Positions 371 through 22,698 of a stretch of 24,000 nucleotides of DNA are shown piece after piece. The stretch comes from an uncultured Solirubrobacteraceae bacterium. GTDB lineage: Bacteria; Actinomycetota; Thermoleophilia; Solirubrobacterales; Solirubrobacteraceae. The first letter of the stretch is position 1. The number at the start of each line of letters is the position of its first letter. Both the position numbers and the translations under genes were made by a program. The DNA lies in the NCBI GenBank assembly GCA_963805525.1, contig CAWDUT010000005.1:59824-83823 (forward strand). The letters are read 5' to 3'. The notes under the pieces are model-generated. The model saw only the letters and a program-made list of their open reading frames with translations, was not told the origin of the DNA and did no database searches.

Positions 371-901
371 ATGGCCAATGAGAACCTGTCCCTCTACGTC
401 GCGTCCTACGCCGATGGTGCGGCGGCCGAAGCCGACTTCCGGTCGCTGAAGGATGCCGAGGGGACGTATGACTTCGCGGTGCTCGGCGCGGTCGTCGCCA
501 GCCGCGACGATGCCGGTGAAGTGACCGTTGACGAGCACGGGGCGGCATCGCCGGTGGGTGGGGGCACGGTCCTGGGCGCCGCCGGTGGCCTGGCTGTGGG
601 GCTGTTCGCGCCGCCGCTGCTTCTGGCGACCGCGGTCGGCGCCGGGATCGGCGCGGGGATCGGCGCGCTCAGGAAGCGCCACGACGAGAAGCAGCTCGGC
701 GTCGACCTGGAGGAATACCTCCCGCCCGGCTCGTCGGCAGTGATCATCGTCGTCGACGACACCTACCTCGACCGGGTCGACAAGGCGCTGACGAAGTCGA
801 CCAAGAAGATCAACAAGGCCGTGGACTCCGGTGACTACGAGCAGCTCACCAAGGCACTCCAGGACGCCGACAAGAACGTCTCGACCGCCGTCGACTCCTG
901 A
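371..901 (+). CDS. DUF1269-like membrane protein (soluble N-domain, glycine-zipper TM segment, charged C-terminal tail)
   Basis: 176-aa ORF with GGAG 7 nt upstream of the ATG. It has a Gly/Ala-rich hydrophobic core (GGGTVLGAAGGLAVGLFAPPLLLATAVGAGIGAGIGAL) and third-position GC bias. Family assignment is from memory of DUF1269 architecture. Confidence 0.8.
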   Translation: MANENLSLYVASYADGAAAEADFRSLKDAEGTYDFAVLGAVVASRDDAGEVTVDEHGAASPVGGGTVLGAAGGLAVGLFAPPLLLATAVGAGIGAGIGALRKRHDEKQLGVDLEEYLPPGSSAVIIVVDDTYLDRVDKALTKSTKKINKAVDSGDYEQLTKALQDADKNVSTAVDS

Positions 902-1002
902 TCGACGCGGAGCCGACCCGTGCGCAAGCGTGCGCGGTGCTCCACACCATCTGCGTAACGCGGTAGATGCCGCGTCACGTCCCTCAGCGAGTAAGGAGCC
1001 TC

Positions 1003-1545
1003 ATGGCTATCGGACCGGTTCAATTGATCGTGCTCGGCTTCAGTCACCCCGATTTCCACGGCGAGGTCATCGCCGAGTTGGAGCGGTTGCGGGAGAGTGA
1101 CGCGGTACGGGTTATCGACGCGCTGGCCGTTCACAAGGATGCGGCCGGCGAGATCGAGGTGGCACATCTCAGCAACCTCTCCAAGGACGAGGCGATCGAG
1201 CTCGGCAGCAAGGTCGGCGCGCTGATCGGCCTCGGGATCGAGGGCGAGGAGGGCATGGTCGCGGGTGCGGAGGCGGGTGCCGACGCGGGTGCCGACGGCG
1301 TGAGCGTGTTCTCCGATGACGAGGCGTGGGACGTCATCGAGGACATCCCGAACGACTCCGCCGCCGCGCTGGTCCTGATCGAACACCACTGGGCGGTGCC
1401 CTTGCGCGACGCGATCGCGCGCGCCGGGGGCTTCCGGATCAGCGACGGGTTCATCAGCCCGCTGGACCTGGTCGAGATCGGCCTCGCCTCGCGCGAGGAG
1501 GCGGACACCCTCCATGCCCTCGAGACCGCCGGCCAGCCCACGTAG
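1003..1545 (+). CDS. DUF6325-like protein (uncharacterised actinobacterial family)
   Basis: ATG at 1003 is preceded by AAGGAG (992-997). The N-terminus MAIGPVQLIVLGFSHPDFHGEVIAELERLRESDAVRVIDALAVHKDAAGEI matches the remembered DUF6325 pattern. The longer ORF starting at 967 lacks an RBS. Confidence 0.8.
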   Translation: MAIGPVQLIVLGFSHPDFHGEVIAELERLRESDAVRVIDALAVHKDAAGEIEVAHLSNLSKDEAIELGSKVGALIGLGIEGEEGMVAGAEAGADAGADGVSVFSDDEAWDVIEDIPNDSAAALVLIEHHWAVPLRDAIARAGGFRISDGFISPLDLVEIGLASREEADTLHALETAGQPT

Positions 1546-1788: not shown

Positions 1789-3195
1789 ATGACGAAGAAC
1801 GTGAAGGACAAGCAGCGCCGCCGCGGCGTGCTCGACGTCCCGAAGGCGATCGAAGCGCGGTTGGAGGAGGGGCGTGCCGAGCGTGAGTCGGTGGCGCTGG
1901 AGGCTCACGGCGAGTGGGCGGCGCCCGATGACCGTCCGGATCCGGTCGGCGTCCTGGAGCAGGAGGACGTGACGCGTGTGCCCGAGCTGGTGCCGATCCG
2001 TCACGGGCGGATGATCGCCTCGCCGTTCACGTTCTACCGCGGCGGGGCGGCGATCATGGCGTGGGATCTGTCGCGCACCCCGACGACGGGGCTGCGCGTC
2101 CAGTGCTGCGGAGACGCGCACCTGTCGAACTTCGGCGTGTTCGCGGCGCCCGATCGCCGGGTCGTGTTCGATCTCAACGACTTCGACGAGACGCTGCCGG
2201 CGCCGTTCGAGTGGGACGTCAAGCGCCTGGTCGCGAGCCTGGTCGTGGCGGCGCGCAACAACGGCCACCGATCCAAGGAGCAGCGAGCCGCGGCCCGCGC
2301 GACGGCCGCGGCCTATCGGACGACGATCGCCGAGGCGGCGGCGATGCGCTTCCTGGACGTCTGGTACGCGCGGATCGACGCCGACGCAGTGCTCGCCGAG
2401 CTCAGCACCGCTGAGGCCAAGAGCGCGCAGAAGACGCTGGCCAAGGCGCGCACGCGGACGAGCCTGGGCTCGCTGGCGAAGTTCGCGCAGCGCGTCAACG
2501 GCGGCTACCGGATCAAGCAGCAACCGCCGCTGATCGTGCGCCCGCCCGAGGACAGTTACGGCGACTTCGAGCAGATCATCCGCCAGGGGCTCACGGACTA
2601 CGCGCACTCCTTGGCCCCTGATCGGCGCGTGGTGCTCGACCATTACCACTACGAGGACTTCGCGCGCAAGGTCGTCGGCGTCGGCTCGGTCGGCACCGAA
2701 GCCTTCATGGTCCTGCTCGTCGGCGATCGCGAAGACGATCCGTTGTTCCTGCAGATCAAGGAGGCCAGCACCTCGGCGCTGGCTCCCTATGCGGGCGCGA
2801 GCGAGTACGAGCACCAGGGCGAGCGAGTCGTAGAGGGCCAGCGGCTGATGCAGTCGGCCAGCGACGCGTTCCTGGGCTGGGTCACCGGTACCGGCAAGGG
2901 ACGACGCGAGTTCTACGTCCGCCAACTGCGCGACATGAAGGGCTCGGCTGTGATCGAGACGATGTCGCCGAAGCGCCTGGCCCGCTACGGGGAGCTCTGC
3001 GGCGCCGCCCTGGCGCGTGCCCACGCGCGCACCGGCGACGCCGCCAAGATCGCCGGCTACCTCGGCAACGACGACACATTCGACCGCGCCATCCAACGCT
3101 TCGCAGTCGCCTACACCGACCAGACCGAGCTCGACTACGCGGCGTTCACGCAGGCAGCTGACGAGCAGCGCGTCGCGGTCGAAGCCGGCGTGTAA
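1789..3195 (+). CDS. DUF2252 domain-containing protein
   Basis: 468-aa ORF with GAAGGAG 5 nt upstream of the ATG. Characteristic strings: PIRHGRMIASPFTFYRGGAAIMAWDL, QCCGDAHLSNFG, FDLNDFDETLPAPFEWDVKRL. Confidence 0.9.
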   Translation: MTKNVKDKQRRRGVLDVPKAIEARLEEGRAERESVALEAHGEWAAPDDRPDPVGVLEQEDVTRVPELVPIRHGRMIASPFTFYRGGAAIMAWDLSRTPTTGLRVQCCGDAHLSNFGVFAAPDRRVVFDLNDFDETLPAPFEWDVKRLVASLVVAARNNGHRSKEQRAAARATAAAYRTTIAEAAAMRFLDVWYARIDADAVLAELSTAEAKSAQKTLAKARTRTSLGSLAKFAQRVNGGYRIKQQPPLIVRPPEDSYGDFEQIIRQGLTDYAHSLAPDRRVVLDHYHYEDFARKVVGVGSVGTEAFMVLLVGDREDDPLFLQIKEASTSALAPYAGASEYEHQGERVVEGQRLMQSASDAFLGWVTGTGKGRREFYVRQLRDMKGSAVIETMSPKRLARYGELCGAALARAHARTGDAAKIAGYLGNDDTFDRAIQRFAVAYTDQTELDYAAFTQAADEQRVAVEAGV

Positions 3196-3394
3196 CTGAC
3201 CAGCCCAACCTCCACGACGACAATCGCGAGAATCCACCGCGCGGCGATCTGTTCTCCGAGGACATCAACGCACCACAGACGACGTCGCCGACGGGACCAG
3301 CCTCAAGCGATTGCCTCGCTCGCGGGCAGGCGATCAGTCAGAATCTGCGTGATTTGCAGGGATTCTATCCCCTTGCGCTCCTCGTTTCCGGCGC

Positions 3395-3436
3395 CTGAAA
3401 ATCGTGGTGTCCCCGGTTCGAGTCCGGGTCTCGCCA
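3395..3436 (+). repeat. 3' half of a tRNA-Phe(GAA)-like gene (anticodon loop to CCA-proximal end), att-like direct repeat copy 1; not an intact tRNA
   Basis: The sequence parses as CTGAAAA (anticodon loop, GAA), TCGTG, GTGTC (variable), CCCGG-TTCGAGT-CCGGG (T arm), TCTCGCC-A (acceptor 3' strand). Upstream there is no GGCGAGA acceptor 5' strand, D arm or anticodon-stem partner. It is 41/42 identical to 10816-10857. Confidence 0.75.
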
Positions 3437-3936
3437 TGCCGAGGGCCGAAATCCCGTGTGGCTACGAGATTCTCTAGTCGATGGTGCACTGGCGACTCGA
3501 ACTTCCTGCACCACGCGTGGTTGTCGTGAGGTCCGCGGTATGAGTCGGAAGCGGCGAACTCGGCTTCGCCGCCGTGATCTCGGGCGCTCGCGGCGTGTAC
3601 GACGCTCGGAGAGAAGGCCCGGCCGAACGTGCCGCAATCGCCTTTTTGTCTCCTTTTCCTTGAGGCACCTCGAGGGTTCGGACGCGCCTCCGCGCAACGG
3701 CCACCGCGCGAACTTTCGCTCGCGCGCGGCGCGCGCGATGTCCATCACGCCGGCGGACAAGTCGTTGTGGCGCCGGTTTCGGAGTGTCGCCCGGCCAGAT
3801 TGAGCGTCCGACGCCTGCCCTCTGGGTGCTGCTCGTACGCTCGGTCCTTGAGCGTGCCGGTTGGCGCTCTGGTCACGTCGGGCCGAGGACTGGCAGCGGG
3901 GCGGTCGATCGCCGGCGCGCACGCGAGGGCTGTCCG

Positions 3937-3962
3937 GGCACGGCCCGAGGTCGGGCCGTGCC
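3937..3962 (-). terminator. Perfect 11-bp GC hairpin downstream of the fasciclin gene
   Basis: GGCACGGCCCG (3937-3947), loop AGGT, CGGGCCGTGCC (3952-3962). It lies 37 nt past the fasciclin stop codon on the minus strand. No U-tract. Confidence 0.5.
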
Positions 3963-3998
3963 GGGGAATCGGACAGCGTGCAGCGCCGCCGCCGGCGG

Positions 3999-4533
3999 CT
4001 ACGGGATCAGGACGCGGTTGATGACGTGGATGACGCCGTTGGAGGCGCGCACGTCGGCGGTGACGACCTTCGAGCGGTTCACGAACACGTTCTGGTCGCG
4101 GACGCGGATCTTCACGCGCTTGCCGTTGAGCGTCTTGATCGACGAGCGCTTGACGACGCGCTTGGCGGCGAGCCGGCCTGCGGCGACGTGGTAGAGCAGC
4201 ACCGCCTTCAGCTTCGCCTTGTCCTTGCCGAGCGCCTTGAGCGTCTTCTTGGGCACCTTCTTGAAGGCCGCATCGGTGGGCGCGAAGACCGTGTACGGCC
4301 CCTTCGCGGAGAGCGTCTCGGCCAGGCCCGCCTGCTTGACGAGTGAGACCAGCGTGGTGAAGTTGCCGGCCGCGACGGCGGTCTCGACGATGTTGGGCTT
4401 GGCGGCCGCGGCGGCCGCGGCCGTGTCGGGGCGTGCGCTGGCCGGCGCTGCCGCCAGCGCCGCGGCGGCAAGTCCGGCGACGAGCCCGGCGGTGCGCGCG
4501 GCGCGCAGTGGTGGTGATGGTGCTGGTGCTCAT
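3999..4533 (-). CDS. Secreted fasciclin (FAS1) domain protein; reading frame broken by an apparent 1-nt indel about 27 nt after the ATG
   Basis: The frame ending at the stop 4001-3999 translates ..LRAARTAGLVAGLAAAALAAAPASA/RPD..KPNIVETAVAAGNFTTLVSLVKQAGLAETLSAKGPYTVFAPTDAAFKKVPKKTLKALGKDKAKLKAVLLYHVAAGRL..GVIHVINRVLIP, i.e. a signal peptide plus FAS1 domain. That frame is closed by TGA at 4532-4530 and has no ATG/GTG/TTG before 4256. The only SD-preceded start (AAGGAG-N4-ATG, ATG at 4533-4531) is 1 nt out of frame. Confidence 0.8.
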
Positions 4534-4550
4534 GCTGCTCCTTGGTGAGA

Positions 4551-4636
4551 GGGTGGGACAAACACTGAACAAGCTATGGACAGCTAAGCAGCGACTGTCC
4601 TGTCTGTCAAGTCCTTGTTCATTGTTTGTTCGGCGA
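4551..4636. promoter_or_regulatory. Candidate CarH/LitR operator plus divergent promoters: near-palindrome made of 3+3 eleven-bp-phased T-N2-ACA repeats
   Basis: ACA occurs on the top strand at 4558, 4569 and 4580. TGT (ACA on the bottom strand) occurs at 4605, 4616 and 4627. All are mirror-symmetric about 4593/4594. The 18-nt arms GGACAAACACTGAACAAG (4556-4573) and CTTGTTCATTGTTTGTTC (4614-4631) are 16/18 reverse-complementary. TTGTTC(4615-4620)-N17-TATGCT(4638-4643) would place a TSS at about the ATG at 4651 (leaderless). TTGACA lies on the minus strand at 4610-4605. Confidence 0.45.
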
Positions 4637-4650
4637 CTATGCTGCACGGC

Positions 4651-5502
4651 ATGGCAGCCGCCACGCTCCGCATCGGTGAGCTCGCGCGGCGCTCCGGCGT
4701 CAGCGCGGACCTCCTGCGCGCGTGGGAGCGCCGCTACGCGCTGCTGGAGCCGGTGCGCACCGCCGGCGGCTACCGCCTGTACTCCGCCGCCGACGAGGCG
4801 CGCGTGCGCTCGATGCAAGCCCACCTCGCACAGGGACTGTCGGCCGCCGAGGCCGCGCGACTGGTCCGCGACGCGACGGCGCCCGAGCCGCAGAACGGCG
4901 CTCCGGCGGATCTCGCCGCAGCGCTGTGGTCCGCGCTCGACAACTTCGACGACGCGGGCGCGCAAGCCGCCTTCGACCGGCTCGTGGCGACGTTCAGCCT
5001 CGAGGCCGTCGCGGAGACGGCCATCCTGCCCTATCTGCGGGCGCTCGGCGAGCGCTGGCGCGACGGCGACGCCTCCGTGGCGCAAGAGCACTTCGCCACC
5101 GGCCTGCTTCGAGCGCGGCTGCTGGGCCTGGCCCGCGGCTGGGACCGCGGCGCCGGTCCTCGCGCGCTGCTCGCCTGCCCGTCAGGCGAACACCACGACC
5201 TCGGGCTCATCATCCTCGGCCTCGCGCTACACGACCGCGGCTGGCGCGTCACGTTCCTCGGACCCGACACCCCGATCCAGACGCTCGCAGCCGCCGCCGA
5301 CCAGCTCACGCCCGACGCGGTCGTGCTCTCCTCACTCACGCGCGAACCGCTTCGCCGCGGCCGAAACCGAGATCGCGCAGATCGCCGCCTCGCGACCCGT
5401 ACTGCTCGCTGGCCCCGGCGCGGATACCGAACTGGCCGAACGCTCACGGGCCGACTGCTCGCCGGGAACCCGATCGACGCCGCCGACGAGATGTCCGCGT
5501 AG
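4651..5502 (+). CDS. carH: MerR-family HTH / cobalamin-binding light-responsive regulator (CarH/LitR type); C-terminal ~50 codons appear scrambled by two compensating frameshifts
   Basis: N-terminal MerR HTH: TLRIGELARRSGVSADLLRAWERRYALLEPVRTAGGYRLY. Wx9EH motif: W 5056-5058, EH 5086-5091. B12 motif ExHxxG: GEHHDLG at 5188-5205, followed by GWRVTFLGPDTP. From ~5345 to ~5455 the annotated frame reads GRNRDRADRRLATRTARWPRRGYRTGRTLTG, whereas the +1 frame reads domain-like AAAETEIAQIAASRPVLLAGPGADTELAERS. The start is uncertain: 4651 is favoured by the HTH spacing, and 4639 is also in frame. Confidence 0.8.
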   Translation: MAAATLRIGELARRSGVSADLLRAWERRYALLEPVRTAGGYRLYSAADEARVRSMQAHLAQGLSAAEAARLVRDATAPEPQNGAPADLAAALWSALDNFDDAGAQAAFDRLVATFSLEAVAETAILPYLRALGERWRDGDASVAQEHFATGLLRARLLGLARGWDRGAGPRALLACPSGEHHDLGLIILGLALHDRGWRVTFLGPDTPIQTLAAAADQLTPDAVVLSSLTREPLRRGRNRDRADRRLATRTARWPRRGYRTGRTLTGRLLAGNPIDAADEMSA

Positions 5503-5959
5503 CCGCCGGGCGACCGCATGCACCGGAGGTCACCCCGAACCGCGCCGCGAGCCATGCTCGTGAACCTGCTTCTGCGCGCACGGCCGCCGAGCGGATCCCA
5601 TGCCTTCCAGCAGTGCTCAGACGCGCGCAGGTGAGTGCGTCTGTCCCGGCAGGCACGAGCACGCCGTCGTGCAGAACGGGTGCGAGCCCCGTCGCGATGA
5701 CGGCCTGAACGAGGAGGTCGTCGTCGCGGGGGTTAGCGTCCGGCGCCCATCCACCGGATGGTTCACGGCGACGTCAACGACCGAGCCTGCGGGCTGATGG
5801 TGCCACCACCTCCGCGCGGCGCCAGCTGGCGCGGCCGCGACGCCGCCCGAACGCTGAGGCTTCGCCGTGTGTCTCGCCGGTCGCCGTGATCCCACGAGCG
5901 GTGTGCGCCGTAGAAACGCCGACTTTCAACGATCCGGAGGGCGACGTGGCGAGATTGCG

Positions 5960-6157
5960 ATGCACCGACGGGTGGCCATCATGACCAGAGAGCGCTTGGG
6001 CGTGACGCTGATCCTGACCGCTGCCGTGATGTCGTTCCTGCTCTCGATCGGGCTCTGGTTCACCGACAACCGGGAGGAAGGCGTGTTCGTGGGGCTGTGG
6101 GTGCCGTCGATCCTCGCGGCGGGCGGCTTCTGGATGGCCGCGGCGAGGACGCGATGA
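5960..6157 (+). CDS. Small two-TM membrane protein, function unknown
   Basis: The ORF has good third-position GC. Two hydrophobic segments are present (LGVTLILTAAVMSFLLSIGLWF and VFVGLWVPSILAAGGFWMAAA). The stop overlaps the next start as ATGA. The start is ambiguous (ATG 5960 or ATG 5981). Confidence 0.55.
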   Translation: MHRRVAIMTRERLGVTLILTAAVMSFLLSIGLWFTDNREEGVFVGLWVPSILAAGGFWMAAARTR

Positions 6158-6357
6158 CCGGCCTCGACGTGCTCCTTGCCGTCGCCGGGCTCGCCGCGAC
6201 GGCGCTCCTGGTGGCCGGCATGATTCTCCTGACACCACGCGGCACCGTCGAGCCGAGCTCAGCCGGCACTCCAGAGCCTCCCCGCACGGCCCCGCCCCGC
6301 CCAGAGACCCATGGCGAACGAGCGGTGTCGACCGAACGCGCACTGGCCGACCGATGA
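6154..6357 (+). CDS. Small single-TM protein with Pro-rich tail, function unknown
   Basis: There are ATGA overlaps with both neighbouring ORFs (6154-6157 and 6354-6357). N-terminal TM segment: MTGLDVLLAVAGLAATALLVAGMILL. Codon bias weakens in the C-terminal half. Confidence 0.4.
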   Translation: MTGLDVLLAVAGLAATALLVAGMILLTPRGTVEPSSAGTPEPPRTAPPRPETHGERAVSTERALADR

Positions 6358-6632
6358 GCGACCGCCGGCGTGCCGGGCAGCGCGGCTGGCCAGCGAGCTT
6401 CCCGGTCGCGCAAGTACCGAACGCGCAGCTGTCCGCGGCGCTAGCCGGCCTGCTCGTCGCCGCGGCGACGAGCGGCTCAGTGCATGCCTACGCGCGCGGC
6501 GTGTTCTACGCCGGGCTCGCCGCATGGGCGTGGGAAGAGCTGATCGGCGGCGTGAACTGGGTGCGCCGCGCCATCGGTGCCGCTGGGCTGGTCTACGTGG
6601 TAGCCAGGGTCGGCGCGGCGCTCGATGGATGA
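6354..6632 (+). CDS. Small membrane protein, function unknown
   Basis: 92-aa ORF with strong GC3 bias and an ATGA-coupled start. Hydrophobic segments: LSAALAGLLVAAATSG, VFYAGLAAWAWEEL, AIGAAGLVYVVARVG. Confidence 0.6.
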   Translation: MSDRRRAGQRGWPASFPVAQVPNAQLSAALAGLLVAAATSGSVHAYARGVFYAGLAAWAWEELIGGVNWVRRAIGAAGLVYVVARVGAALDG

Positions 6633-6674
6633 CGCGTCGTAGACGATCGGAGCGGCGAGCGAGCTGACGGCCGC

Positions 6675-7460
6675 CTATCCGCCGGCGAGCGCGCCGGCAT
6701 AGACCTGCCAGGCCAGCGCGCTCTTGGCGACGAGGCTGAGGATCAGGTAGACGCGCTCGGCGAACGCTGGGTCCGCCCAGCGGCCGCGGCCCCGGTACTG
6801 CAGCCACATGTTGACCGCAAACGTGTTGAACAGCAGGAACAGGGTGATGAAGATCGCGACGACGAAGCCAGGGACGCCGTTGCCATCGGTGGTCGAGACG
6901 ATGAGTTGGGTGGTGATCGCGATCCACGGCACGGCGCCGATGACGCACCCGTAGATGAACGGCCGCCAGTCCACCTCGTCGCGGCCGACGTTCACTCGCT
7001 CCTGCACGAGCCCGAAGAGGATCATCGCCGCGTTCGCCCCGAACAGGGCGATCAGCGCGACGAGCTCGCTGACCCCGGCGAGCATCGCGATCAGCACGAT
7101 CATCAGCGACGCGCTGAGCGAGTACTCCCACCAGCGCGCCGGATTGATCCCGCGCGCAACGTTGGTCTCGTACCAGCGGCGCGGCCGCCCGCCGCTCAGC
7201 GTGAGGTGATCGACCGCGGCAAGCAACAGGAACGCGGCGACCAGCCAGTCGATCCGCACGCTGCCGAGGCTCGCAGAACCGTAGTCGCCGGCGCCGGGCG
7301 GGCCGGTCAGGAACGACGCCGTGATCGGGAGCGAGGCGGCCGTTGCGATCGCGAGCAGGACGACCGCCTGCATGGCGTGCAACGAGCCGACGATGACGTT
7401 CAGCCGGCGCAGCCGGGAGGCCGCCGCGGCGTCGAGCCGGGCTGGCGAGGGGTCGGACAT
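6675..7460 (-). CDS. Heliorhodopsin (retinal-binding 7-TM photoreceptor with inverted topology)
   Basis: The 261-aa ORF aligns end to end with heliorhodopsin 48C12 as I recall it. Matching strings: NVIVGSLHAMQAVVLLA, TASFLTGPPG, RWWEYSLSASLMIVLIA (counterion Glu), VALIALFGANAAMILFGLVQE, GCVIGAVPWI, VPGFV..FITLFLLFNTFA, AERVYLILSLVAKSALAWQVYAG (Schiff-base Lys). Confidence 0.9.
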   Translation of the reverse strand: MSDPSPARLDAAAASRLRRLNVIVGSLHAMQAVVLLAIATAASLPITASFLTGPPGAGDYGSASLGSVRIDWLVAAFLLLAAVDHLTLSGGRPRRWYETNVARGINPARWWEYSLSASLMIVLIAMLAGVSELVALIALFGANAAMILFGLVQERVNVGRDEVDWRPFIYGCVIGAVPWIAITTQLIVSTTDGNGVPGFVVAIFITLFLLFNTFAVNMWLQYRGRGRWADPAFAERVYLILSLVAKSALAWQVYAGALAGG

Positions 7461-7513
7461 GCCTTAGGTACGGCTACGGGAGAGAAACGGACGACCCGCG
7501 CGACCGGGATGAG

Positions 7514-8548
7514 GTGTCGCTTGTGAGCGATCCGGCGCCGCGTCCCGTAGAGGGAGCAGTGATCACCTCCCTGCTCGACACGATTCTCGACCGCACAGTC
7601 GTCGCCGGTTACGCGAGCGCCGGATACCGGATGCGCAGCCGTGCGTGGGACGCAGACGATCTCCCGTCGATGGACGGCAAGACGGTCCTCGTCACCGGTG
7701 CGACCTCGGGGCTCGGTCTGGCGGCCGCCGAAGGGTTTGCCCGGCTCGGCGCGAGCGTCCGGCTGCTCGCGCGCAACGAGGAGCGCGGGGAGCGAGCGCG
7801 CGCGGCCGTCGTCGCGGCGACCGGCAACAGCGACGTGCGGGTGTGCCTGTGCGATGTCAGCGACATGCAGGACGTGCGGGCCTTCGCGGCGCGCTTCATC
7901 GCCGACGAGCCGCGCCTCGACGTCCTGGTCAACAACGCCGGCGTGCTGCCGCCGGAGCGAGCGGTCACCGCGGACGGCAACGAGCTCGCGCTGGCGACGA
8001 ACGTACTCGGACCGTTCCTGCTCACGAACCTGCTGATCCCCCTGCTCACGCAGAGCGCACCGGCGCGGGTCATCAACGTCTCCTCGGGCGGGATGTACAC
8101 GCAGCGGCTACATGTCGAGGACCTGCAGTCCACGGGCGAGAAGTACGACGGGCCGACGGTATACGCGCGGACCAAGCGCGCGCAGGTGATCCTGACCGAG
8201 CTGTGGGCGAAGCGGCTCGCCGGCACCGGGGTGGTCGTGCACGCGATGCACCCGGGCTGGGCGGACACTCCCGGCGTAGCGTCCTCGCTGCCGCGCTTTC
8301 ACCGGCTGACCGGACCGCTACTGCGCAGCCCCGAACAGGGGGCCGACACGATCGTCTGGCTCGGGGCGGCCGCCGAACCGGGCGAGAGTTTCGGCGGTTT
8401 CTGGCACGACCGCAGACGGCGCCCGACGCACCGCGTGCCGTGGACGAGGGAGGCGCCTGAAGATCGTGAGCGGCTCTGGCGCGAGTGCGAGCGGCTCACC
8501 GGCTGGCACGCCGTCCCGCTCCCGGCCCCGACCCACGCGCGCGTATAG
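7514..8548 (+). CDS. Short-chain dehydrogenase/reductase (SDR), DHRS12 / retinol-dehydrogenase-like subgroup with N-terminal extension
   Basis: Cofactor motif TVLVTGATSGLGLAAA, NNAG motif (LVNNAGV), catalytic S..YxxxK (VSSGG ... YARTKRA). The start may be GTG 7514 or in-frame GTG 7523. Confidence 0.9.
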   Translation: MSLVSDPAPRPVEGAVITSLLDTILDRTVVAGYASAGYRMRSRAWDADDLPSMDGKTVLVTGATSGLGLAAAEGFARLGASVRLLARNEERGERARAAVVAATGNSDVRVCLCDVSDMQDVRAFAARFIADEPRLDVLVNNAGVLPPERAVTADGNELALATNVLGPFLLTNLLIPLLTQSAPARVINVSSGGMYTQRLHVEDLQSTGEKYDGPTVYARTKRAQVILTELWAKRLAGTGVVVHAMHPGWADTPGVASSLPRFHRLTGPLLRSPEQGADTIVWLGAAAEPGESFGGFWHDRRRRPTHRVPWTREAPEDRERLWRECERLTGWHAVPLPAPTHARV

Positions 8549-8559
8549 GAGACACACCG

Positions 8560-9462
8560 GTGGCGCACTACACCGCAAGCATCAACACGCCCCGACCGCC
8601 CGCGGAGACGTTCGCGTACCTCAGCGACTTCTCCACAACCGAGGAATGGGACCCGGGCGTGGTCACGGCGAAGCGGCTTGGTGATGCTCCGATCGGTAAG
8701 GGGACGGAGTTCCGTGTCGTGGCCGATTTCCTCGGCCGCAAGGCCGCGCTCACGTACCGGATCGTCGAGTTCGAACCGGGCAGGGCCCTCACGCTGCGGG
8801 GCGAGAACGCGACCGTGGTCTCGCTTGACCGGATCACGTGCGAGCCGTCCGACGGGGGCACGCGGGTCACCTACGACGCCGACCTCGCGCTGAAGGGGCC
8901 GCTGCGGATCGCCGATCCGCTCCTCGGACTCGCTTTCGATCGCGTCGGCGACCGCGCGCTCGACGGCCTGCGCGACACGCTCGGCAGTCGCGACCCGGCA
9001 CGGCTGCCGCCGCTCTCGGGCCGCAGCCTCGACGGCCGCGACCACCACCTGCCCGACGACCTGCGCGAGCAGCACACCTTCATCATCACCGCCTTCCGGC
9101 GCGAGCAGCAGGCGCTGGTCGACGAATGGCTCCCGTGGCTCCTCGACCTCGAGGAGCGCCGCCCGGACGTCGCCGTCTACGAACTGCCGGTCCTCTCCTC
9201 CGCGTACTCGCCGGCCCGCTGGTTCATCGACGGCGGCATGGCGCGCGGCGTGGGGACTGATGCCGCGCGCGCCCGGACGATCACGGTCTACACCGACGTC
9301 GCGAAGGCCGTGCGCGAACTCGGCCTGGCCGGCACCGACACGATCGGCGTCCTGCTCGTCGACCGCTCGGGCCGCATCCGCGCCCGCGAACACGGCGGCT
9401 TCGACGACGAGAAGACGATGCGGCTCACCGCGGCGCTCCGGCGCTCGAGCGCCGACGGCTGA
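8560..9462 (+). CDS. SRPBCC (START/polyketide-cyclase-like) domain protein fused to a cysteine-less thioredoxin-like C-terminal domain
   Basis: GTG at 8560 follows TAGGAGA (8546-8552). The N-half reads AHYTASINTPRPPAETFAYLSDFSTTEEWDPGV...TYDADLALKG, typical of SRPBCC. The C-half (HTFIITAFRREQQALVDEW...IGVLLVDRSGRIRAREHGGF) resembles a redoxin/ATP10-like fold but has no CxxC. The C-half assignment is tentative. Confidence 0.85.
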   Translation: MAHYTASINTPRPPAETFAYLSDFSTTEEWDPGVVTAKRLGDAPIGKGTEFRVVADFLGRKAALTYRIVEFEPGRALTLRGENATVVSLDRITCEPSDGGTRVTYDADLALKGPLRIADPLLGLAFDRVGDRALDGLRDTLGSRDPARLPPLSGRSLDGRDHHLPDDLREQHTFIITAFRREQQALVDEWLPWLLDLEERRPDVAVYELPVLSSAYSPARWFIDGGMARGVGTDAARARTITVYTDVAKAVRELGLAGTDTIGVLLVDRSGRIRAREHGGFDDEKTMRLTAALRRSSADG

Positions 9463-9499
9463 TAATGCTCCGGTGGCGCCGCAGCTGAGAGGACCTGGC

Positions 9500-10408
9500 G
9501 TGGCGCGGCGCGCGCTGGTGACCGGCGCCACCGGGTTCGTGGGCGGGCGGCTGGCCGCTGCAGGCGCCGGCCCCAGCGAGGTGAGCGCTCTGGAGAGGCG
9601 GCGGGCACGGACGACCCGCGAAGACCGTCCGTACCTTGAGCGCCCGAGCCCGTACCTTCGAGATGTGCCGCCGTTCGGAGTCCCGCAGATCGTCGCCGCC
9701 GCCTCGGCCGCCGGCTCGGTGCTCGACGCCGGCTGCGGGAGCGCGCGACTGACCCTGGCGCTCGTCGAGGCCGGCGCGGCAGACGTCGTTGGCATCGACA
9801 CCAGCCTCGAACGCCTCGCGCAGGGGCGCGCGCGGCTCTCGGCGCATCCGATGGGAGCCCACGTGACGCTGATGGAGGCGGACTTCGACCACGCGCTGCC
9901 GTTCTCGGACGGGCGGTTCAACGCAGCCGTGAGTCGCCTGGCGCTGATGATCGCGTCCGACCCGGTGGTGACGCTGCGAGAGCTGCGGCGCGTGACCGCG
10001 GCCGCCGGACGCATCGTCACCGCCCTGTGGGCGCCGGTCGACGAGAACCCGTGGTTCGCGCTCCCCCGCGCCGCCGCGGCCGCGGTCGTCGGCCCCGAGC
10101 GCGCCGACTACGCACGCGCCTTCGGTCGCCTCGGCAGCCCCGAAGAGGCAACCGAGGTCCACCGCGCCGCCGGACTCGCGGACGTGCAAGCGGAAACACT
10201 GCGGCAAACGCTCGACGTACGGAACGCCGCCGCCCTTTGGGCCTGGATGGCTGGCGAGAACGGTCACGTGCGCCGCCTGGACACGACGCTCAGCGACTCG
10301 GAACGCGCAGCCGTGCTCGACGAGCTCGGCCGGATGGTCGCTGGCTACCGCACACACGGCTCGCTCGCTCTCCCGCGCACCATGACGCTGGTGACCGCGA
10401 CCGTCTGA
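9500..10408 (+). CDS. Class I SAM-dependent methyltransferase with a chimeric N-terminus (fragment of an NAD(P)-binding Rossmann protein)
   Basis: GTG at 9500 follows GAGAGGA (9487-9493). SAM motif I: SVLDAGCGSARLTLAL. Post-I: DVVGIDTS. The first ~35 aa (VARRALVTGATGFVGGRLAAAGAGPSEVSALERR) look like the start of an epimerase/NmrA-type protein. Confidence 0.8.
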   Translation: MARRALVTGATGFVGGRLAAAGAGPSEVSALERRRARTTREDRPYLERPSPYLRDVPPFGVPQIVAAASAAGSVLDAGCGSARLTLALVEAGAADVVGIDTSLERLAQGRARLSAHPMGAHVTLMEADFDHALPFSDGRFNAAVSRLALMIASDPVVTLRELRRVTAAAGRIVTALWAPVDENPWFALPRAAAAAVVGPERADYARAFGRLGSPEEATEVHRAAGLADVQAETLRQTLDVRNAAALWAWMAGENGHVRRLDTTLSDSERAAVLDELGRMVAGYRTHGSLALPRTMTLVTATV

Positions 10409-10559
10409 CCCACCGGCGCGGACGGGTTGGGCAAGTGCGTCCACACGCGTCCTGGGCCACCCACCGCGGACGCACGCCGGGCCGTGTGCGTCACGGGCAT
10501 CCCGACGATCTCATCGGAACACACGTGCAACGTGCTCGTGCCCTTCAGCGGCTCATGAG

Positions 10560-10780
10560 GCAACCCAGCGCCGACGCGTCCACATCGAACCATGACCCGC
10601 GCAGGGTCGAGCGCATCGCCGCCGACGAGGTAGCCCACGACGAGGTCGTTGTTTGGATCCGCGAACGCACTCGCCAAAGGGGAGATGAACCGCCGCCATC
10701 TCCTGAAACGCGCGGGAAAGACCGCAAACTGCGGACTGCTACGCGACGCGCCGGATCCTCGAAAACCACATCTTCTCCAG
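10560..10780 (-). pseudogene. Possible remnant of the C-terminus of a serine hydrolase (beta-lactamase/esterase family), frameshifted and 5'-truncated
   Basis: On the minus strand one frame gives RSLRSFPRVSGDGGGSSPL and the adjacent frame continues ASAFADPNNDLVVGYLVGG. Together these mimic the conserved SFGH-G-GGS-AFADP--L---YV-N block. No N-terminal half is present; the tRNA-fragment repeat lies where it should be. Confidence 0.3.
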
Positions 10781-10815
10781 GGATTTCACCGCTTGCGGCC
10801 GCGAGAACGCAACGA

Positions 10816-10857
10816 CTGGAAATCGTGGTGTCCCCGGTTCGAGTCCGGGTCTCGCCA
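10816..10857 (+). repeat. 3' half of a tRNA-Phe-like gene, att-like direct repeat copy 2 (anticodon position mutated GAA to GGA); not an intact tRNA
   Basis: It is 41/42 identical to 3395-3436. Four extra upstream nt (ACGA, 10812-10815) still pair with TCGT of the anticodon stem. It is followed by a T-rich, lower-GC flank (ctttcttttgcctgcataatgatg). No D arm is present. The short GCGAGA at 10801-10806 could pair with TCTCGC but would leave no room for a D arm. Confidence 0.75.
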
Positions 10858-10969
10858 CTTTCTTTTGCCTGCATAATGATGCTCTCTGCGCCTTTGCGAG
10901 CGGACTCTGAAAGGTGGAGTACCGGCGACTTGCGGGCATTTCACGACCAGGCGTGCGGCCCCGTTTCGC

Positions 10970-12310
10970 TCAGCGCCAGTCGAAGTGCTCGCGGTGAATG
11001 CGCCTGGCGGGTACGCCCGCCTGACGGAGCCCGGTCTGGAAGCTGCTGAGCATGGCGTTCGGCCCGCACATGAAGACCGACAGGACGCGCGGATTGCCGC
11101 CGGTGGTTGTGAGGACCCGTTCGGGCGTGAGGCGCCCGTCGATGCGCGTGTCGATCAGGTGCGCGTGCAATGACGGGTGGCGGTCCGCGATCAGGTTGAT
11201 CTCCTCGGCGAAGGGCGCCTCGCCGGCTGCGGTGTAGAAGAACTCGACGTGCCGGGGCGGGTGCTCGTCGAGCGCGCGCAGCCAGCTGAGGAACGGCGCG
11301 ACGCCGACGCCGGCGGCGATCCAGACCTGCCGGTCCGTGCCGCGCGCGTGGTTGAAGCGCCCGTGAGGGCCGCCGATGACGGCGGGCATGCCGGGCTCGA
11401 TGAGTTGCTGCAGCCGCGAGGTGTAGTCGCCCAGCGCCTTGACGGTGACGCGCACGATGTCCTCCCGCGGGGCGCTGGAGATCGTGAACGGGTGCCGGTG
11501 CCAGCCGTCCTTGGCTTCGAGGTAGACCATCGCGAACTGGCCGGGCATGAACGCGACGGGTCGGCCGAGCGGGCGCAACGCGACCTCCACCAGACCTTGC
11601 TCGACCTCACGCACCGCGTCGACCTGGTAGTCGTGCAGCGAGAGGAGGAAGCGCGCGAGCAGCTCGCGGTAGGCGTAGAACCCGAGCCCGACGGCGCCGA
11701 CTGCCACATAGCTCCAGCGCAGGACCGGCGCAGCATGAAACGGGGTGCCGTCGAGGACGCCGTGCGCGAAGCCCGCGGCGACGAACAGCCCGGTGGTGCG
11801 ATGCAGCGCTCGCCAGCGGTCATAGCCGCCGAAGAGGCGGCGCACGTCGCGCACGCCGGGCGCGTCGCGAGCGGCCAGGACGACACCCCGCAAGGCTGCC
11901 GGCACCACCGATTGCCAGCGCGGCAGGATCGCCCACAGCGCGAGCGCCACCAGCCCGATCGCGCCGATGGCGCCGAGCGGGCCGCCGAGCGTGGTGCCAT
12001 CCCGGTTCGACGCCATCAGCACATGCGGCGCGAGCAGGACGAGACCGGTGATCGCGACGCGGCGATGCCAGATCGCCGCGCGGTCGATCCCGTCAAACCA
12101 CTCCTCCACCCACGGCAACATGCTGATCAGCACCAGGCCGATCGAGAGCAGCAGGATCGACTCGGCGCCCAGCAACTGACCCACGTAACTCCCGGTCGAC
12201 TCTCCGGCCGGACGTGCGACCGTCCACAGGACGCCCTGCCCGACGACGAGGACGCCGATCGTCGCCGGCCCCACGTCCCGAGCGACGAACCGCGCGCGCG
12301 GCGGATGCAT
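10970..12310 (-). CDS. Ferric-reductase-like transmembrane flavocytochrome (NOX/FRE family: 6-TM bis-heme domain + FAD-binding + NAD(P)H-binding)
   Basis: 446-aa ORF. Paired His motifs lie in TM helices (HRRVAITGLVLLAPH; HRTTGLFVAAGFAH). FAD motif HPFTISS. NAD(P)-binding motif VWIAAGVGVAPF and C-terminal CGP motif. Confidence 0.9.
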   Translation of the reverse strand: MHPPRARFVARDVGPATIGVLVVGQGVLWTVARPAGESTGSYVGQLLGAESILLLSIGLVLISMLPWVEEWFDGIDRAAIWHRRVAITGLVLLAPHVLMASNRDGTTLGGPLGAIGAIGLVALALWAILPRWQSVVPAALRGVVLAARDAPGVRDVRRLFGGYDRWRALHRTTGLFVAAGFAHGVLDGTPFHAAPVLRWSYVAVGAVGLGFYAYRELLARFLLSLHDYQVDAVREVEQGLVEVALRPLGRPVAFMPGQFAMVYLEAKDGWHRHPFTISSAPREDIVRVTVKALGDYTSRLQQLIEPGMPAVIGGPHGRFNHARGTDRQVWIAAGVGVAPFLSWLRALDEHPPRHVEFFYTAAGEAPFAEEINLIADRHPSLHAHLIDTRIDGRLTPERVLTTTGGNPRVLSVFMCGPNAMLSSFQTGLRQAGVPARRIHREHFDWR

Positions 12311-21723: not shown

Positions 21724-22698
21724 ATGCGATTGCTGGTCACCGGGAGCGCCGGACACCTGGGCGAGGCGCTGATGCGCGTGCTCGGCGCGGAGGGCCACGA
21801 CGTGGTCGGGCTCGACGTCCTGGCCTCGCCCTACACGCACCTCGTCGGCTCGATCGCCGACCGCGCCGTTGTGCGCGCGGCGATGGAGGGCACCGACGCC
21901 GTCCTGCACGCCGCGACGCTGCACAAGCCCCACGTCGGCTCGCACGACCGCCGCGCGTTCGTGGACACGAACATCACCGGCACGCTGAACCTGCTCGAGG
22001 AGGCGATGGCGGCCGGCGCCTCGCGCTTCGTCTTCACCAGCACCACGAGCGCGTTCGGCCGCGCGCTCACGCCGCCGCCGGGCGCGCCCGCGGCCTGGAT
22101 CACGGAGGACGTCGCGCCCGTGCCGCGCAACATCTACGGCGCCACCAAGACCGCCGCCGAGGACCTCTGCGAGCTCGTCCACCGCGACCACGGGCTGCCG
22201 TGCCTGATCCTGCGCACCTCACGCTTCTTCCCCGAGGAGGACGACCGCGACGACGTCCGCTCCGCCTACCCGGACGCGAACCTCAAGGTCAACGAGCTGC
22301 TCTACCGCCGGGTCGATCTCGAGGACGTCGTGAGCGCCCACCGCTGCGCGCTCGAGCGCGCAGCGGAGCTCGGCTTCGGCCGCTACATCGTGAGCGCCAC
22401 CACGCCCTTCACCCGCGACGACCTCGCCGAGCTGCGCGCCGACGCCGCCGCGGTCGTGCAGCGGCGCTTTCCCGAGGCCGCCGCGCTCTACGAGCGGCTC
22501 GGCTGGCGACTCTTCCCGGCGATCGAGCGGGTCTACGTCAACGCGCGCGCCCGCGAGGAGCTCGGCTGGGCGCCGCGCTGGGACTTCCAGCACGCGCTCG
22601 AGCGGCTGCAGGCCGGCGAGCCGCCGCGCAGCGAGCTCGCCGCCGCGGTCGGCGCCAAGGGCTACCACGCCGCGCCGACCGGGGTGTATACGCGCTAA
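21724..22698 (+). CDS. NAD-dependent epimerase/dehydratase family protein (extended SDR)
   Basis: MRLLVTGSAGHLGEALMRVL (GxxGxxG), TSTTSAFG, and YGATKTAAE (YxxxK). Its TAA (22696-22698) overlaps the stop of the convergent GGDEF gene (CTAA). Confidence 0.9.
   Translation: MRLLVTGSAGHLGEALMRVLGAEGHDVVGLDVLASPYTHLVGSIADRAVVRAAMEGTDAVLHAATLHKPHVGSHDRRAFVDTNITGTLNLLEEAMAAGASRFVFTSTTSAFGRALTPPPGAPAAWITEDVAPVPRNIYGATKTAAEDLCELVHRDHGLPCLILRTSRFFPEEDDRDDVRSAYPDANLKVNELLYRRVDLEDVVSAHRCALERAAELGFGRYIVSATTPFTRDDLAELRADAAAVVQRRFPEAAALYERLGWRLFPAIERVYVNARAREELGWAPRWDFQHALERLQAGEPPRSELAAAVGAKGYHAAPTGVYTR

Follow-up and report, generated by a model that had tools for sequence, protein, structure and literature searches.

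A heliorhodopsin gene and a CarH/LitR-type regulator gene, two putatively autonomous light-sensing units on a mosaic accessory segment of a Solirubrobacterales-type bacterium

In the established mechanism of CarH, the adenosylcobalamin (AdoCbl)-bound tetramer binds its operators in the dark, and photolysis of AdoCbl in the light releases repression. The repeat published for the Thermus thermophilus protein (TtCarH) is nAnnTnnACAn, and tandem 11-bp repeats overlap the promoter (PMC8156234). As for heliorhodopsins (HeRs), a 'MerR family regulator' and SDR genes were described as their frequent neighbours by Cho et al. 2024; these MerR neighbours were not identified as B12/CarH photoreceptors, the text containing neither CarH nor LitR, and B12 only in a reference (PMC11109279). 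In Trichococcus flocculiformis, the pairing of HeR with photolyase has tied HeR to light-damage functions (PMC9769723).

We analyzed a 24,000-nt stretch of DNA from an uncultured Solirubrobacteraceae bacterium (hereafter the window; features in Table 1), in which a previous sequence-only reading had noticed genes for both photoreceptor types about 1.2 kb apart. The actual gap is 1172 nt (5503-6674) and encloses two small conserved ORFs for membrane proteins, neither of which had a Pfam family. A homologue of the first one, sm5867, adjoins HeR in the related loci L001, L012 and L007, and in L028 it sits between fasciclin and HeR genes.

Table 1 Features of the analyzed window
Feature	Position	Strand	Remarks
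Left tRNA-Phe 3'-end repeat, 45 nt	3392-3436	+	repeat search; aligned to intact tRNA-Phe of L012, L014
Fasciclin (FAS1) domain gene, secreted protein	3999-4533	-	Pfam Fasciclin E 1.4e-23; PDB FAS1 matches
Putative CarH operator A	4551-4583	+	three tandem 11-bp direct repeats, ACA at 4558/4569/4580; adjoins fasciclin promoter
Putative CarH operator B	4604-4636	-	three tandem 11-bp direct repeats; + strand TGT at 4605/4616/4627
carH/litR-type gene	4651-5502	+	MerR HTH, four-helix bundle with Wx9EH, Rossmann B12 domain with ExHxxG...SxL
sm5867, small two-TM membrane protein	5867-6157	+	likely start internal ATG near 5960
sm6354, small membrane protein	6354-6632	+	near HeR in 12/80 loci
Heliorhodopsin (HeR) gene	6675-7460	-	intact, 261 aa, with H28, H85, E112, K246; Pfam, NCBIfam, 6SU3 alignment
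HeR-proximal element TCCGTTTCTCTCCC (minus-strand sense)	7478-7491	-	about 20-33 nt 5' of HeR start
Classical SDR oxidoreductase	7514-8548	+	divergent from HeR, 53-bp gap
SRPBCC (Polyketide_cyc2) domain protein	8485-9462	+	~150-aa C-terminal domain without family match; probably in operon with SDR
Chimeric ORF	9260-10408	+	NmrA-like NAD-binding gene remnant fused to class-I methyltransferase
Right tRNA-Phe 3'-end repeat, 45 nt	10813-10857	+	repeat search; tRNA-Phe alignment

Both photoreceptor assignments held. The HeR product matched the Pfam family Heliorhodopsin (PF18761) over profile positions 1-242 of 242 (E 4e-90, 301.8 bits, above the family cut-off) and scored 289 bits with NCBIfam NF038020 (cut-off 100). 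Residues H23/H80/E107/K241 of HeR 48C12 (6SU3) correspond to its H28/H85/E112/K246, and the two His, the counterion Glu and the Schiff-base Lys are invariant or nearly so across 21 relatives. It falls in a clade of soil Solirubrobacterales in which metagenomic relatives (71-95% identity) number in the hundreds. In the regulator, Pfam detected MerR_1/MerR, B12-binding_2 and B12-binding domains, and its GERW-x9-EH, GEHHDLG and GPDTP motifs align to W131/E141/H142/H177 of TtCarH (5C8D, E 4e-41). Judged by these motifs, it is a class-I CarH/LitR-type regulator with the full set of AdoCbl light-sensing signatures, scoring 157.6 bits with the NCBIfam CarH equivalog, below the curated cut-off of 400. 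An alternative start at 4639 may be used by homologues.

As sequenced, carH contains one additional base at ~5354 and lacks one base after 5451 relative to L001, L004 and L010. The 32 codons in between (5354-5451) are out of frame, with the 'GG' strand of the B12 motif scrambled; GC3 of this stretch is 0.62 in the annotated frame versus 0.76 in the +1 frame. The fasciclin frame is disrupted past codon ~13 by a 1-nt insertion at ~4496 (three-frame translation; DNA alignment with L001 and L004). These three frame-breaking indels, missed by the sequence-only reading, all lie within 1.5 kb, and none were detectable in ~17 kb of other coding sequence. Several ENA long-read versions of the same carH gene carry frameshifts at differing places, one of them a compensated double shift, while the JGI versions are intact (283-287 aa). 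Errors of long-read assembly are therefore a more likely source of the indels than genuine decay, although such clustering would also be expected if this genome were really losing its CarH arm.

Next to carH, the ACA-phased repeats noted previously resolved into two three-repeat sets that take up the 118 bp separating carH from the divergent fasciclin gene. The window has exact TGT-N8-TGT-N8-TGT at 4558-4582 and 4605-4629 and nowhere else; tolerating one mismatch gave four matches versus 0.72 expected. Operator B overlaps the spacer as well as the presumed carH -35 (TTGTTC, 4615-4620); TATGCT at 4638-4643 is the presumed -10, and the carH mRNA would probably be leaderless; a generic promoter/terminator scan of the window found neither. 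The fasciclin gene starts with ATG at 4533, preceded by an RBS (AAGGAG), and encodes a signal peptide with RR and a cleavage site between ASA and RP. In 81 HeR loci (1.4 Mb), 19 exact operator sites were found, all but one of them (18/19) beside a carH and/or fasciclin gene. Among 80 metagenomic CarH loci, an operator lies within 150 nt upstream of carH in 42 of 76 cases, and a divergent fasciclin gene is present in 17 of 43. Of 82 operators, 84% have T at repeat position 5; this base lies outside what the search pattern imposed and agrees with the published TtCarH repeat, which supports the operator reading. From this anatomy, the evident direct targets of CarH appear to be its own gene and the fasciclin gene that diverges from it, not HeR; the sequence-only reading had not recognized this. 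The CarH-fasciclin partnership is stronger than that of CarH with HeR.

The HeR gene, convergent with carH in the window, seems to be under different control. No phased TGT/ACA triplet was found near HeR or SDR, including 7461-7513, even with one mismatch, in agreement with the earlier caveat that the latter region contains no CarH operator. The HeR-proximal element, itself free of TGT/ACA phased repeats, is kept in ~10 close HeR loci regardless of the gene upstream. Since it persists whatever the neighbour and no operator is near, HeR can be read as autonomous from CarH, having its own conserved promoter-proximal element. The same observations make it highly improbable that CarH also regulates HeR in the window, whether by a degenerate operator or by a long-range or antisense effect of the convergent carH transcript. 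Such regulation would be in line with relatives that carry HeR in CarH-headed operons; moreover, because carH and the two small ORFs are convergent with HeR, transcription running on from the light-induced carH promoter would be antisense to it.

The co-localization proved recurrent and not unique to this genome. When 10 kb on either side of HeR were searched, a carH/litR-type regulator was found within 6.6 kb in 9 of 80 species-level HeR loci of Solirubrobacterales, in at least six architectures; these loci are not phylogenetically independent, and the enrichment estimate for the pairing rests on an assumed 1-3 carH genes in a genome of ~4 Mb. Conversely, HeR is near carH in 3/80 metagenomic CarH loci and on two of four long contigs with the closest CarH homologues. 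Operon-like arrays occur in L021 (carH-TerC-HeR), L028 (carH-[8 repeats]-fasciclin-small ORF-HeR), L030 and L075, the last with fasciclin-SDR-SRPBCC-fasciclin-HeR-SDR on one strand. In a second HeR clade (41% identity), four of nine cases are bicistronic carH-HeR units with overlapping or adjacent cistrons. In some relatives, HeR would thus lie within a CarH-controlled transcription unit, and direct CarH-HeR wiring, unsupported by the sequence of this window, is plausible there. As carH is present at only 11% of the HeR loci of the clade and HeR neighbours are highly variable among the 80 loci, the link may be loose. The light-response module suggested previously therefore stands in part: the pairing recurs and is operon-like in relatives, but in the window the genes are convergent, in separate transcription units and on two modules.

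The att-like repeats noted earlier are 45-nt direct repeats, 96% identical. They correspond to the last 45 nt of tRNA-Phe(GAA), a stretch that reaches from its anticodon stem to the discriminator, and are not intact tRNAs; neither ARAGORN nor Rfam detected RNA genes in the window, and no mobility genes (integrase or other) were found in it. The bracketed segment spans 7.4 kb. Relative to L001, its carH-fasciclin part is 89.5% identical and its HeR-SDR-SRPBCC part 97-98%, with unrelated flanks and 836 bp missing from the window at ~9569. Judged by this difference in identity, the segment is a mosaic of two modules with differing histories. HeR segments of L001, L010 and L014 are likewise bracketed by tRNA-Phe 3' copies, and the same segment sits in differing contexts in other genomes. 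HeR and carH-fasciclin might accordingly be unrelated cargo of a variable region downstream of tRNA-Phe, with no functional relationship. Consistent with this are the bracketing copies, the unrelated flanks among the window, L001 and L010, the unequal divergence of the modules, the variable HeR neighbours, and L012, where HeR adjoins an intact tRNA-Phe without carH. However, the pairing also occurs without a nearby tRNA-Phe fragment (L003, L017, L021 and L028) and as overlapping or adjacent cistrons in the second clade, and eight of the nine carH genes are less than 2 kb from HeR despite the 10 kb searched per side. We thus consider pure hitch-hiking unlikely.

It is very unlikely that the proteins of the fasciclin, SDR and SRPBCC genes form a chromophore-handling module, one that would take up or convert a carotenoid or retinoid so as to supply HeR with retinal in an organism devoid of crt/blh, with CarH providing light induction. 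Their genes do recur around HeR (L075, L030 and L164/165, where SRPBCC abuts HeR; the divergent HeR/SDR pair is also found in L001, L003, L015 and L017), and Pfam scans of all sizeable ORFs of the window found no crt, blh, cobalamin or integrase genes, as previously stated for the first three. The window fasciclin matches AstaP, a carotenoid-binding FAS1 protein from algae (E 7e-13). Nevertheless, its match to generic FAS1 is closer (1W7D, E 3e-26), carotenoid binding has been described as a green-algal neofunctionalization, a cyanobacterial FAS1 homologue binding none (PMC10147662), and profile and structure matches of the SDR give no specific retinol-dehydrogenase assignment.

We regard it as rather probable, judging from gene content and operator anatomy, that the window holds an accessory segment of soil Solirubrobacterales type (Thermoleophilia) with two autonomous light-sensing units that are not wired via a recognizable CarH operator. 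The 7.4-kb segment beside the tRNA-Phe remnants would carry both. In the dark, the AdoCbl-bound CarH tetramer would sit on both operators and block both divergent promoters; under UV, blue or green light, AdoCbl would be photolysed, the tetramer would dissociate, and expression of carH and of the secreted fasciclin would follow, as expected from CarH family knowledge and the operator anatomy. HeR, divergently paired with the SDR-SRPBCC operon, would presumably act as a non-pumping retinal photosensor modulating partner proteins, like other HeRs. The proximity of carH and HeR may reflect a 'light-response neighbourhood' that recurs among soil Actinomycetota, juxtaposed here as a two-module mosaic, and represents a sound, moderately interesting lead.

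Compared with known systems, the window HeR aligns over its full length to 48C12 (6SU3, E 1e-61) and TaHeR (6IS6, E 4e-52), with Lys, Glu and both His in common. The regulator shares the three-module architecture of class-I CarH/LitR proteins (T. thermophilus CarH 5C8D, LitR 3WHP), as well as Wx9EH, ExHxxG and the GxxW/EH/GxxH/GxxxP light-response signature (PMC11796333). The operators in the window resemble described CarH operators in overlapping the promoter and in being built from three tandem 11-bp repeats, which carry T5 and ACA8-10 (PMC8156234). Unlike in known CarH systems, there are two mirror-oriented operators for divergent promoters, the regulated neighbour appears to be a secreted fasciclin-domain protein and not carotenoid genes, and the copy as sequenced has the scrambled 32-codon stretch and a score below the equivalog cut-off.

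In Pseudomonas mendocina, the LitR/CarH-family regulator PmlR2 similarly lies beside a mechanistically different photoreceptor, the short LOV protein PmSB-LOV (PMC9758184). This precedent of a LitR-family effector, together with reports that HeRs work by binding partner proteins (PMC9529153, PMC11109279), might suggest that HeR signals to the CarH/LitR regulator. However, PmlR2 is LOV-dependent and of class II, which lacks the Rossmann B12 domain (PMC9758184), whereas the window regulator appears to have its own complete chromophore site and light-sensing signature and would need no external sensor; protein-level coupling is the least probable reading considered here.

As in tRNA-targeted genomic islands, the direct repeats correspond to a tRNA 3' end and the same segment lies between differing flanks elsewhere; L014 has an intact tRNA-Phe at one end, whereas the window has neither that nor a mobility gene. 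An FeS-BCP-type photolyase gene directly adjoins HeR in 13 of 80 related loci, but no photolyase is present in the window. Of the HeR neighbours grouped by Cho et al. 2024, TerC and photolyase are also found in relatives of the window, and a MerR-family gene and SDR are both near its HeR, neither in the HeR operon. Since MerR regulators and SDRs have already been published as HeR neighbours (PMC11109279), this neighbourhood is not wholly new; the identification of the MerR neighbour as a B12 photoreceptor goes beyond the published account.

Both photoreceptors of the window proved to be ordinary members of known families. The rhodopsin matched Pfam PF18761 over profile positions 1-242 of 242 (301.8 bits, cut-off 26.7, E 4e-90) and NCBIfam NF038020 (289.2 bits, cut-off 100). 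When aligned to the reference heliorhodopsin 48C12 (structure 6SU3), its K246 corresponds to the Schiff-base K241 in TM7, E112 to the counterion E107, and H28 and H85 to H23 and H80. Among 21 relatives, K246, E112 and H85 were invariant and H28 nearly so. The sequence-only reading, a full-length heliorhodopsin (HeR) with the Lys, the Glu and both His, is thus borne out by both family models, above their curated cut-offs, and by the structure alignment. Heliorhodopsins have an inverted membrane topology, bind retinal and run a long photocycle without ion pumping; to our knowledge, only a few partner proteins have been described so far. Hundreds of metagenomic relatives share 71-95% identity with the window HeR.

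As for the regulator (carH), its product contains a MerR HTH (MerR_1 E 9.6e-16, MerR E 1.5e-13) followed by B12-binding_2 and B12-binding domains in Pfam. It matched T. thermophilus CarH/LitR structures with E 4e-41, the alignment to TtCarH (5C8D) starting from residue 6. The Wx9EH motif reads W-RDGDASVAQ-EH, preceded by LGER, and ExHxxG reads EHHDLG. The light-response signature GxxW, EH, GxxH, GxxxP (PMC11796333) is complete (LGERW, EH, SGEHH, GPDTP) and invariant in 8 homologues. The assignment to the CarH/LitR type, originally made from the HTH and the two motifs, therefore stands, both the HTH and the B12-binding domain being recovered by HMM. The best-scoring NCBIfam family was NF052513 (TransRegCarH) with 157.6 bits, below the equivalog cut-off of 400, so that the gene is a family relative and not an equivalog of that model's CarH. 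Close homologues are annotated by JGI as 'light-induced transcriptional regulator'. Class I CarH/LitR proteins bind AdoCbl, form tetramers in the dark and disassemble in the light, which leads to derepression.

Not all of the Rossmann B12 motif (E/DxHxxG-x41-SxL-x~25-GG) is readable in carH as sequenced. EHHDLG and SSL are present, 41 residues apart, and the GG strand lies within 32 out-of-frame codons. Comparison with the DNA of three related HeR loci (L001, L004 and L010) revealed a single inserted base at ~5354 and the loss of one base after 5451, placing the codons between them out of frame; LLAGPG returns if both indels are corrected. As sequenced, the Pfam B12-binding match ends at profile position 62 of 121, and the C-terminal 50 residues are arginine-rich nonsense, the +1 frame reading FAAAETEIAQIAASRPVLLAGPGADTELAERS. 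GC3 of the scrambled stretch is higher when read in the +1 frame (0.76) than in the annotated one (0.62), in agreement with a frameshift. The fasciclin gene divergent from carH (ATG 4533, RBS AAGGAG) is likewise broken by a 1-nt insertion at ~4496. No frameshift was found relative to L001 in the HeR, SDR, SRPBCC or small-ORF products, all of which are full length and 94-99% identical. Such clustering of three single-base changes within 1.5 kb could indicate genuine decay, i.e. pseudogenisation of the CarH arm in this genome. However, long-read-derived ENA copies of the regulator are frameshifted elsewhere, at different positions (P0241, P0244 and P0325; P0324 carries a compensated double shift), while the short-read JGI copies are intact (283-287 aa). 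For this reason, an assembly artefact appears the more likely origin of the indels. In L010, a CarH-like fragment with only the Rossmann B12 domain directly follows HeR, at a place taken in L004 by a full carH, and L010 has a complete carH upstream of HeR as well, which is evidence of rearrangement or duplication.

Coordinates of the features discussed (L, HeR loci of related genomes; P, metagenomic homologues)
Feature	Sequence	Coordinates	Strand	Remarks
Paralogous-looking ORFs	window	371-901, 967-1545		upstream of DUF2252
Stretches with CCAGGGATT	window	3355-3391, 10776-10812
Stretches with CCAGGGATT	L001	5810-5846, 14870-14906
45-nt direct repeat	window	3392-3436, 10813-10857		3' end of tRNA-Phe(GAA)
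Fasciclin gene	window	3999-4533	-
Operator A (putative)	window	4551-4583		triple 11-bp repeat; ACA at 4558, 4569, 4580
Operator B (putative)	window	4604-4636		triple 11-bp repeat; TGT at 4605, 4616, 4627
carH	window	4651-5502	+
sm5867	window	5867-6157		small membrane-protein ORF
sm6354	window	6354-6632		small membrane-protein ORF
HeR	window	6675-7460	-
Element TCCGTTTCTCTCCC	window	7478-7491	-
SDR gene	window	7514-8548	+
SRPBCC gene	window	8485-9462	+
SRPBCC-fused C-terminal domain	window	8990-9462
Same domain, stand-alone gene	L013	10751-11158
Same domain, stand-alone gene	L016	10803-11240
Chimeric ORF	window	9260-10408
PAS-PAS-GGDEF gene	window	22695-23978
CarH-like fragment	L010	10799-11269
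Bicistronic carH-HeR	L121	1620-3316		gaps in all bicistronic cases -11 to +47 nt
Bicistronic carH-HeR	P0134 contig
Bicistronic carH-HeR and flanking genes	L166-168	2039-8729 (L166)
Bicistronic carH-HeR	L171-172
SRPBCC gene abutting HeR	L164/L165	4467-5792		zero gap
Fasciclin-SDR-SRPBCC-fasciclin-HeR-SDR	L075	7322-11659		one strand
Photolyase gene beside HeR	L039	12197-13705

Next, three 11-bp direct repeats occur twice in the 118-bp gap between carH and the fasciclin gene, the two sets being mirror-oriented. The exact pattern TGT-N8-TGT-N8-TGT occurred in this gap only within the 24-kb window, and with one mismatch permitted there were 4 matches in the window against 0.72 expected. Phased repeats are kept in the homologous gaps of L001, L003, L004, L010 and L017, which together with the pattern search substantiates the ACA-phased repeats noticed earlier at the carH promoter. 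Across 1.4 Mb of HeR loci, 18 of the 19 exact phased sites adjoined carH and/or a fasciclin gene. Among metagenomic CarH loci (n=80), a phased site lay at most 150 nt upstream of carH in 42/76, and the divergent fasciclin gene was found in 17 of the 43 having enough flank (40%). The TtCarH operator is composed of 3-4 tandem 11-bp repeats nAnnTnnACAn overlapping the promoter (PMC8156234), and the window sites share with it T5, ACA and the tandem triple architecture. In 82 operators (246 repeats), position 5 was T in 84%, T5 being absent from the search pattern; position 2, unlike in the published consensus, is not conserved (A in only 28%). A plausible -35/-10 pair, TTGTTC-17-TATGCT, overlaps with operator B; the position of this pair would suit a leaderless carH mRNA.

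Classical CarH dark repression and light release is the best-supported mechanism for this region. In the dark, an AdoCbl-CarH tetramer would occupy the predicted operators and occlude both divergent promoters (carH and fasciclin); in the light, it would be released from both. The conserved cargo of CarH is a predicted Tat/Sec-exported fasciclin-domain protein, not carotenoid genes. This divergent secreted protein represents a widespread predicted CarH target undescribed in the literature searched, where no paper combined fasciclin with CarH or LitR. A role of the fasciclin protein as an AstaP-like carotenoid binder is a weak proposition, carotenoid binding being reported as an algal neofunctionalisation and a cyanobacterial homologue being non-binding.

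Is HeR wired to CarH in the window as well? The two genes are convergent and 1172 nt apart, confirming the distance of about 1.2 kb, and the interval holds the two small, conserved ORFs for membrane proteins. No phased TGT/ACA repeats, exact or with one mismatch, were found in or near the 53-bp HeR-SDR gap, and the original caveat that none precede HeR was correct. A generic scan of 3300-11000 found no sigma-70 promoters or terminators. In the ~40 nt upstream of HeR, a conserved element, TCCGTTTCTCTCCC (minus-strand sense), stands ~20-33 nt from the start and is kept in about ten close loci irrespective of the upstream gene; it may serve as HeR promoter or as a regulator site unrelated to CarH. 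In L004, the element directly abuts a tRNA-fragment copy. From its upstream sequence, HeR does not appear to be a direct CarH target in the window. HeR shares an operon with MerR or SDR neighbours in relatives (L021, L121, L166-168, L171-172 and L075) but not here, where carH is convergent 1.2 kb off and SDR divergent. Since the sensors are not directly wired, the window serves as an example rather than as a discovery.

Several other neighbours of HeR deserve mention. Both sm5867 and sm6354 encode small predicted membrane proteins conserved beside HeR; sm6354 is present in 12/80 HeR loci, and in L028 fasciclin and HeR are separated by an sm5867-like ORF. Neither these two nor the C-terminal domain of the SRPBCC protein matched any family in Pfam (E<=5). 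This domain (~150 aa) is a stand-alone gene directly downstream of HeR in L013 and L016, and in L164/L165 an SRPBCC gene abuts HeR. The SDR was considered as a retinol dehydrogenase and rejected, matching only generic SDR/PRK06197 and POR-like models, all under cut-offs.

We surveyed the best 80 genomic HeR loci at species level, including flanks of up to 10 kb; all came from MAGs, which carried the labels Solirubrobacteraceae, Solirubrobacterales, Thermoleophilaceae or Actinomycetes. The pairing is not unique to this genome, a CarH-type gene being found by tblastn and a family HMM alike in 9/80 loci (L001, L003, L004, L006, L010, L014, L017, L021 and L028), where about 0.5 would be expected by chance if one to three such regulators are assumed per ~4-Mb genome. 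In 8 of the 9, carH lies less than 2 kb from HeR, and at least six different gene orders or orientations occur; seven of them belong to the ~23 loci whose HeR is at least 88% identical. In L021 the ORFs of carH-TerC-HeR overlap, and in L028 carH, eight phased repeats, fasciclin, a small membrane ORF and HeR follow each other on one strand. Fasciclin is also immediately upstream of HeR in L030 and L075, with a 4-nt overlap in the latter, whose extended gene cluster is listed in the table. Reciprocally, HeR was detected on 3/80 metagenomic CarH contigs, which are mostly short, and on 2/4 long contigs of the closest CarH homologues. In a second HeR clade, 41% identical to the window HeR, 4 of the 9 proteins examined were encoded in bicistronic carH-HeR arrangements, with TGT/ACA repeats upstream of carH. 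Recurrence in both clades and the reciprocal counts indicate an association that is facultative but recurrent across lineages, and the gene arrangements make it very probable that HeR is transcribed from a CarH-controlled promoter in some genomes. Downstream of the pair in L166-168 come FA_desaturase_2, amine-oxidase/DAO, DUF1365 and CMAS genes, a neighbourhood that looks like a photo-oxidative-stress lipid-modification cluster. A divergent DUF4397 gene occupies the other flank of the pair in this distant clade. Further genes met repeatedly in the surroundings of HeR encode DUF1295, acyltransferase and methyltransferase proteins.

The att-like repeats reported around the segment are real: the 45-nt pair matches the 3' end of tRNA-Phe(GAA). 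Neither ARAGORN nor Rfam at gathering thresholds detected an intact tRNA or other RNA gene in the window, so the repeats are tRNA fragments, not genes; only in L012 and L014 is the corresponding position occupied by an intact tRNA-Phe. A HeR segment between two tRNA-Phe 3' copies is also present in L001, L010 and L014. Relative to L001, identity is 97-98% over 5837-10857 and 89.5%, with many gaps, over 3838-5547; there is no alignment outside the repeats. From this it follows that the segment sits in different contexts in different genomes and is a mosaic of two modules, carH-fasciclin and small-ORFs-HeR-SDR-SRPBCC-methyltransferase. In addition, 836 bp of L001 (7053-7889) are missing from the window at ~9569, and with them the larger part of an NmrA-like NAD(P)-binding gene, the first ~20 codons of which are joined to a class-I methyltransferase in a chimeric ORF. 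The tRNA 3'-end repeats at both ends and the presence of this segment with other flanks in other genomes are features of a tRNA island; no integrase or recombinase domain was found in any window ORF and no intact tRNA at the junction. As an integrase is absent, 'island' describes anatomy only, not demonstrated mobility. The sequence CCAGGGATT precedes all four tRNA-Phe 3' fragments of the window and L001 by ~35 nt, a pattern pointing to element ends that are related and to islands arrayed in tandem at tRNA-Phe.

The whole window (G+C 70-75%) was annotated by scanning all ORFs of sizeable length against Pfam and NCBIfam. The segment is preceded by DUF1269-like proteins and DUF2252, and followed by a ferric-reductase-like flavoprotein, SfLAP, a PEP-utilising enzyme and a large secreted VWA/peptidase protein, then PadR, an MFS transporter, an epimerase and a PAS-PAS-GGDEF protein toward the window end. 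These scans found no crt, blh, cobalamin or integrase genes, upholding the stated absence of carotenoid/retinal synthesis and cobalamin genes. The two neighbouring paralogous-looking ORFs upstream of DUF2252 gave DUF1269/glycine-zipper and weak DUF1269/DUF6325 matches. The PAS-PAS-GGDEF diguanylate cyclase matches PAS_9-type PAS models; it lacks the LOV NCRFL motif and hence gives no pointer to a third photoreceptor.

The proposed light-response module is supported in part: the recurrent pairing and the operons in relatives speak for it, and its weak points are the lack of a CarH operator at HeR in the window and the doubtful integrity of carH as sequenced. We tentatively propose, as a possibility short of an even chance, that HeR of soil Actinomycetota belongs to an AdoCbl-CarH light regulon in which a UV-to-green B12 photoreceptor gates a retinal photoreceptor, the window representing a rearranged, uncoupled module. 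If so, HeR would be co-expressed with the secreted fasciclin protein and SDR/SRPBCC proteins, to which the other clade would add fatty-acid-modifying photo-oxidative-stress genes. This would place HeR inside an inducible cell-envelope light-stress response and provide the first transcriptional handle on its physiological role. The CarH identity of HeR-adjacent MerR genes and the carH-HeR operons lead to a testable prediction, namely that HeR would be light-induced via AdoCbl.

In the literature searched, no paper combined heliorhodopsin with CarH or LitR. What appears to be new is the identification of HeR-adjacent MerR genes as probable CarH-type sensors with canonical operators, together with the predicted CarH-fasciclin regulon and the carH-HeR operons in relatives. 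Ten kinds of gene that often share an operon with HeR were classified by Cho et al. 2024 (PMC11109279), among them a MerR family transcriptional regulator, SDR, TerC and photolyase, but the MerR neighbours were not recognised there as B12 photoreceptors. A FeS-BCP-type photolyase gene lies directly beside HeR in 13/80 related loci (for example L039), in line with the described HeR-photolyase link (PMC9769723). This FeS-cluster cryptochrome/photolyase-type neighbour has a C-terminal CxxC...C motif and a median gap of 12 nt, and accompanies a HeR subclade of 60-66% identity. Finally, a LitR-family protein is known to serve a neighbouring LOV photoreceptor (PMC9758184); whereas that protein is devoid of the B12 Rossmann domain, the window regulator possesses one.
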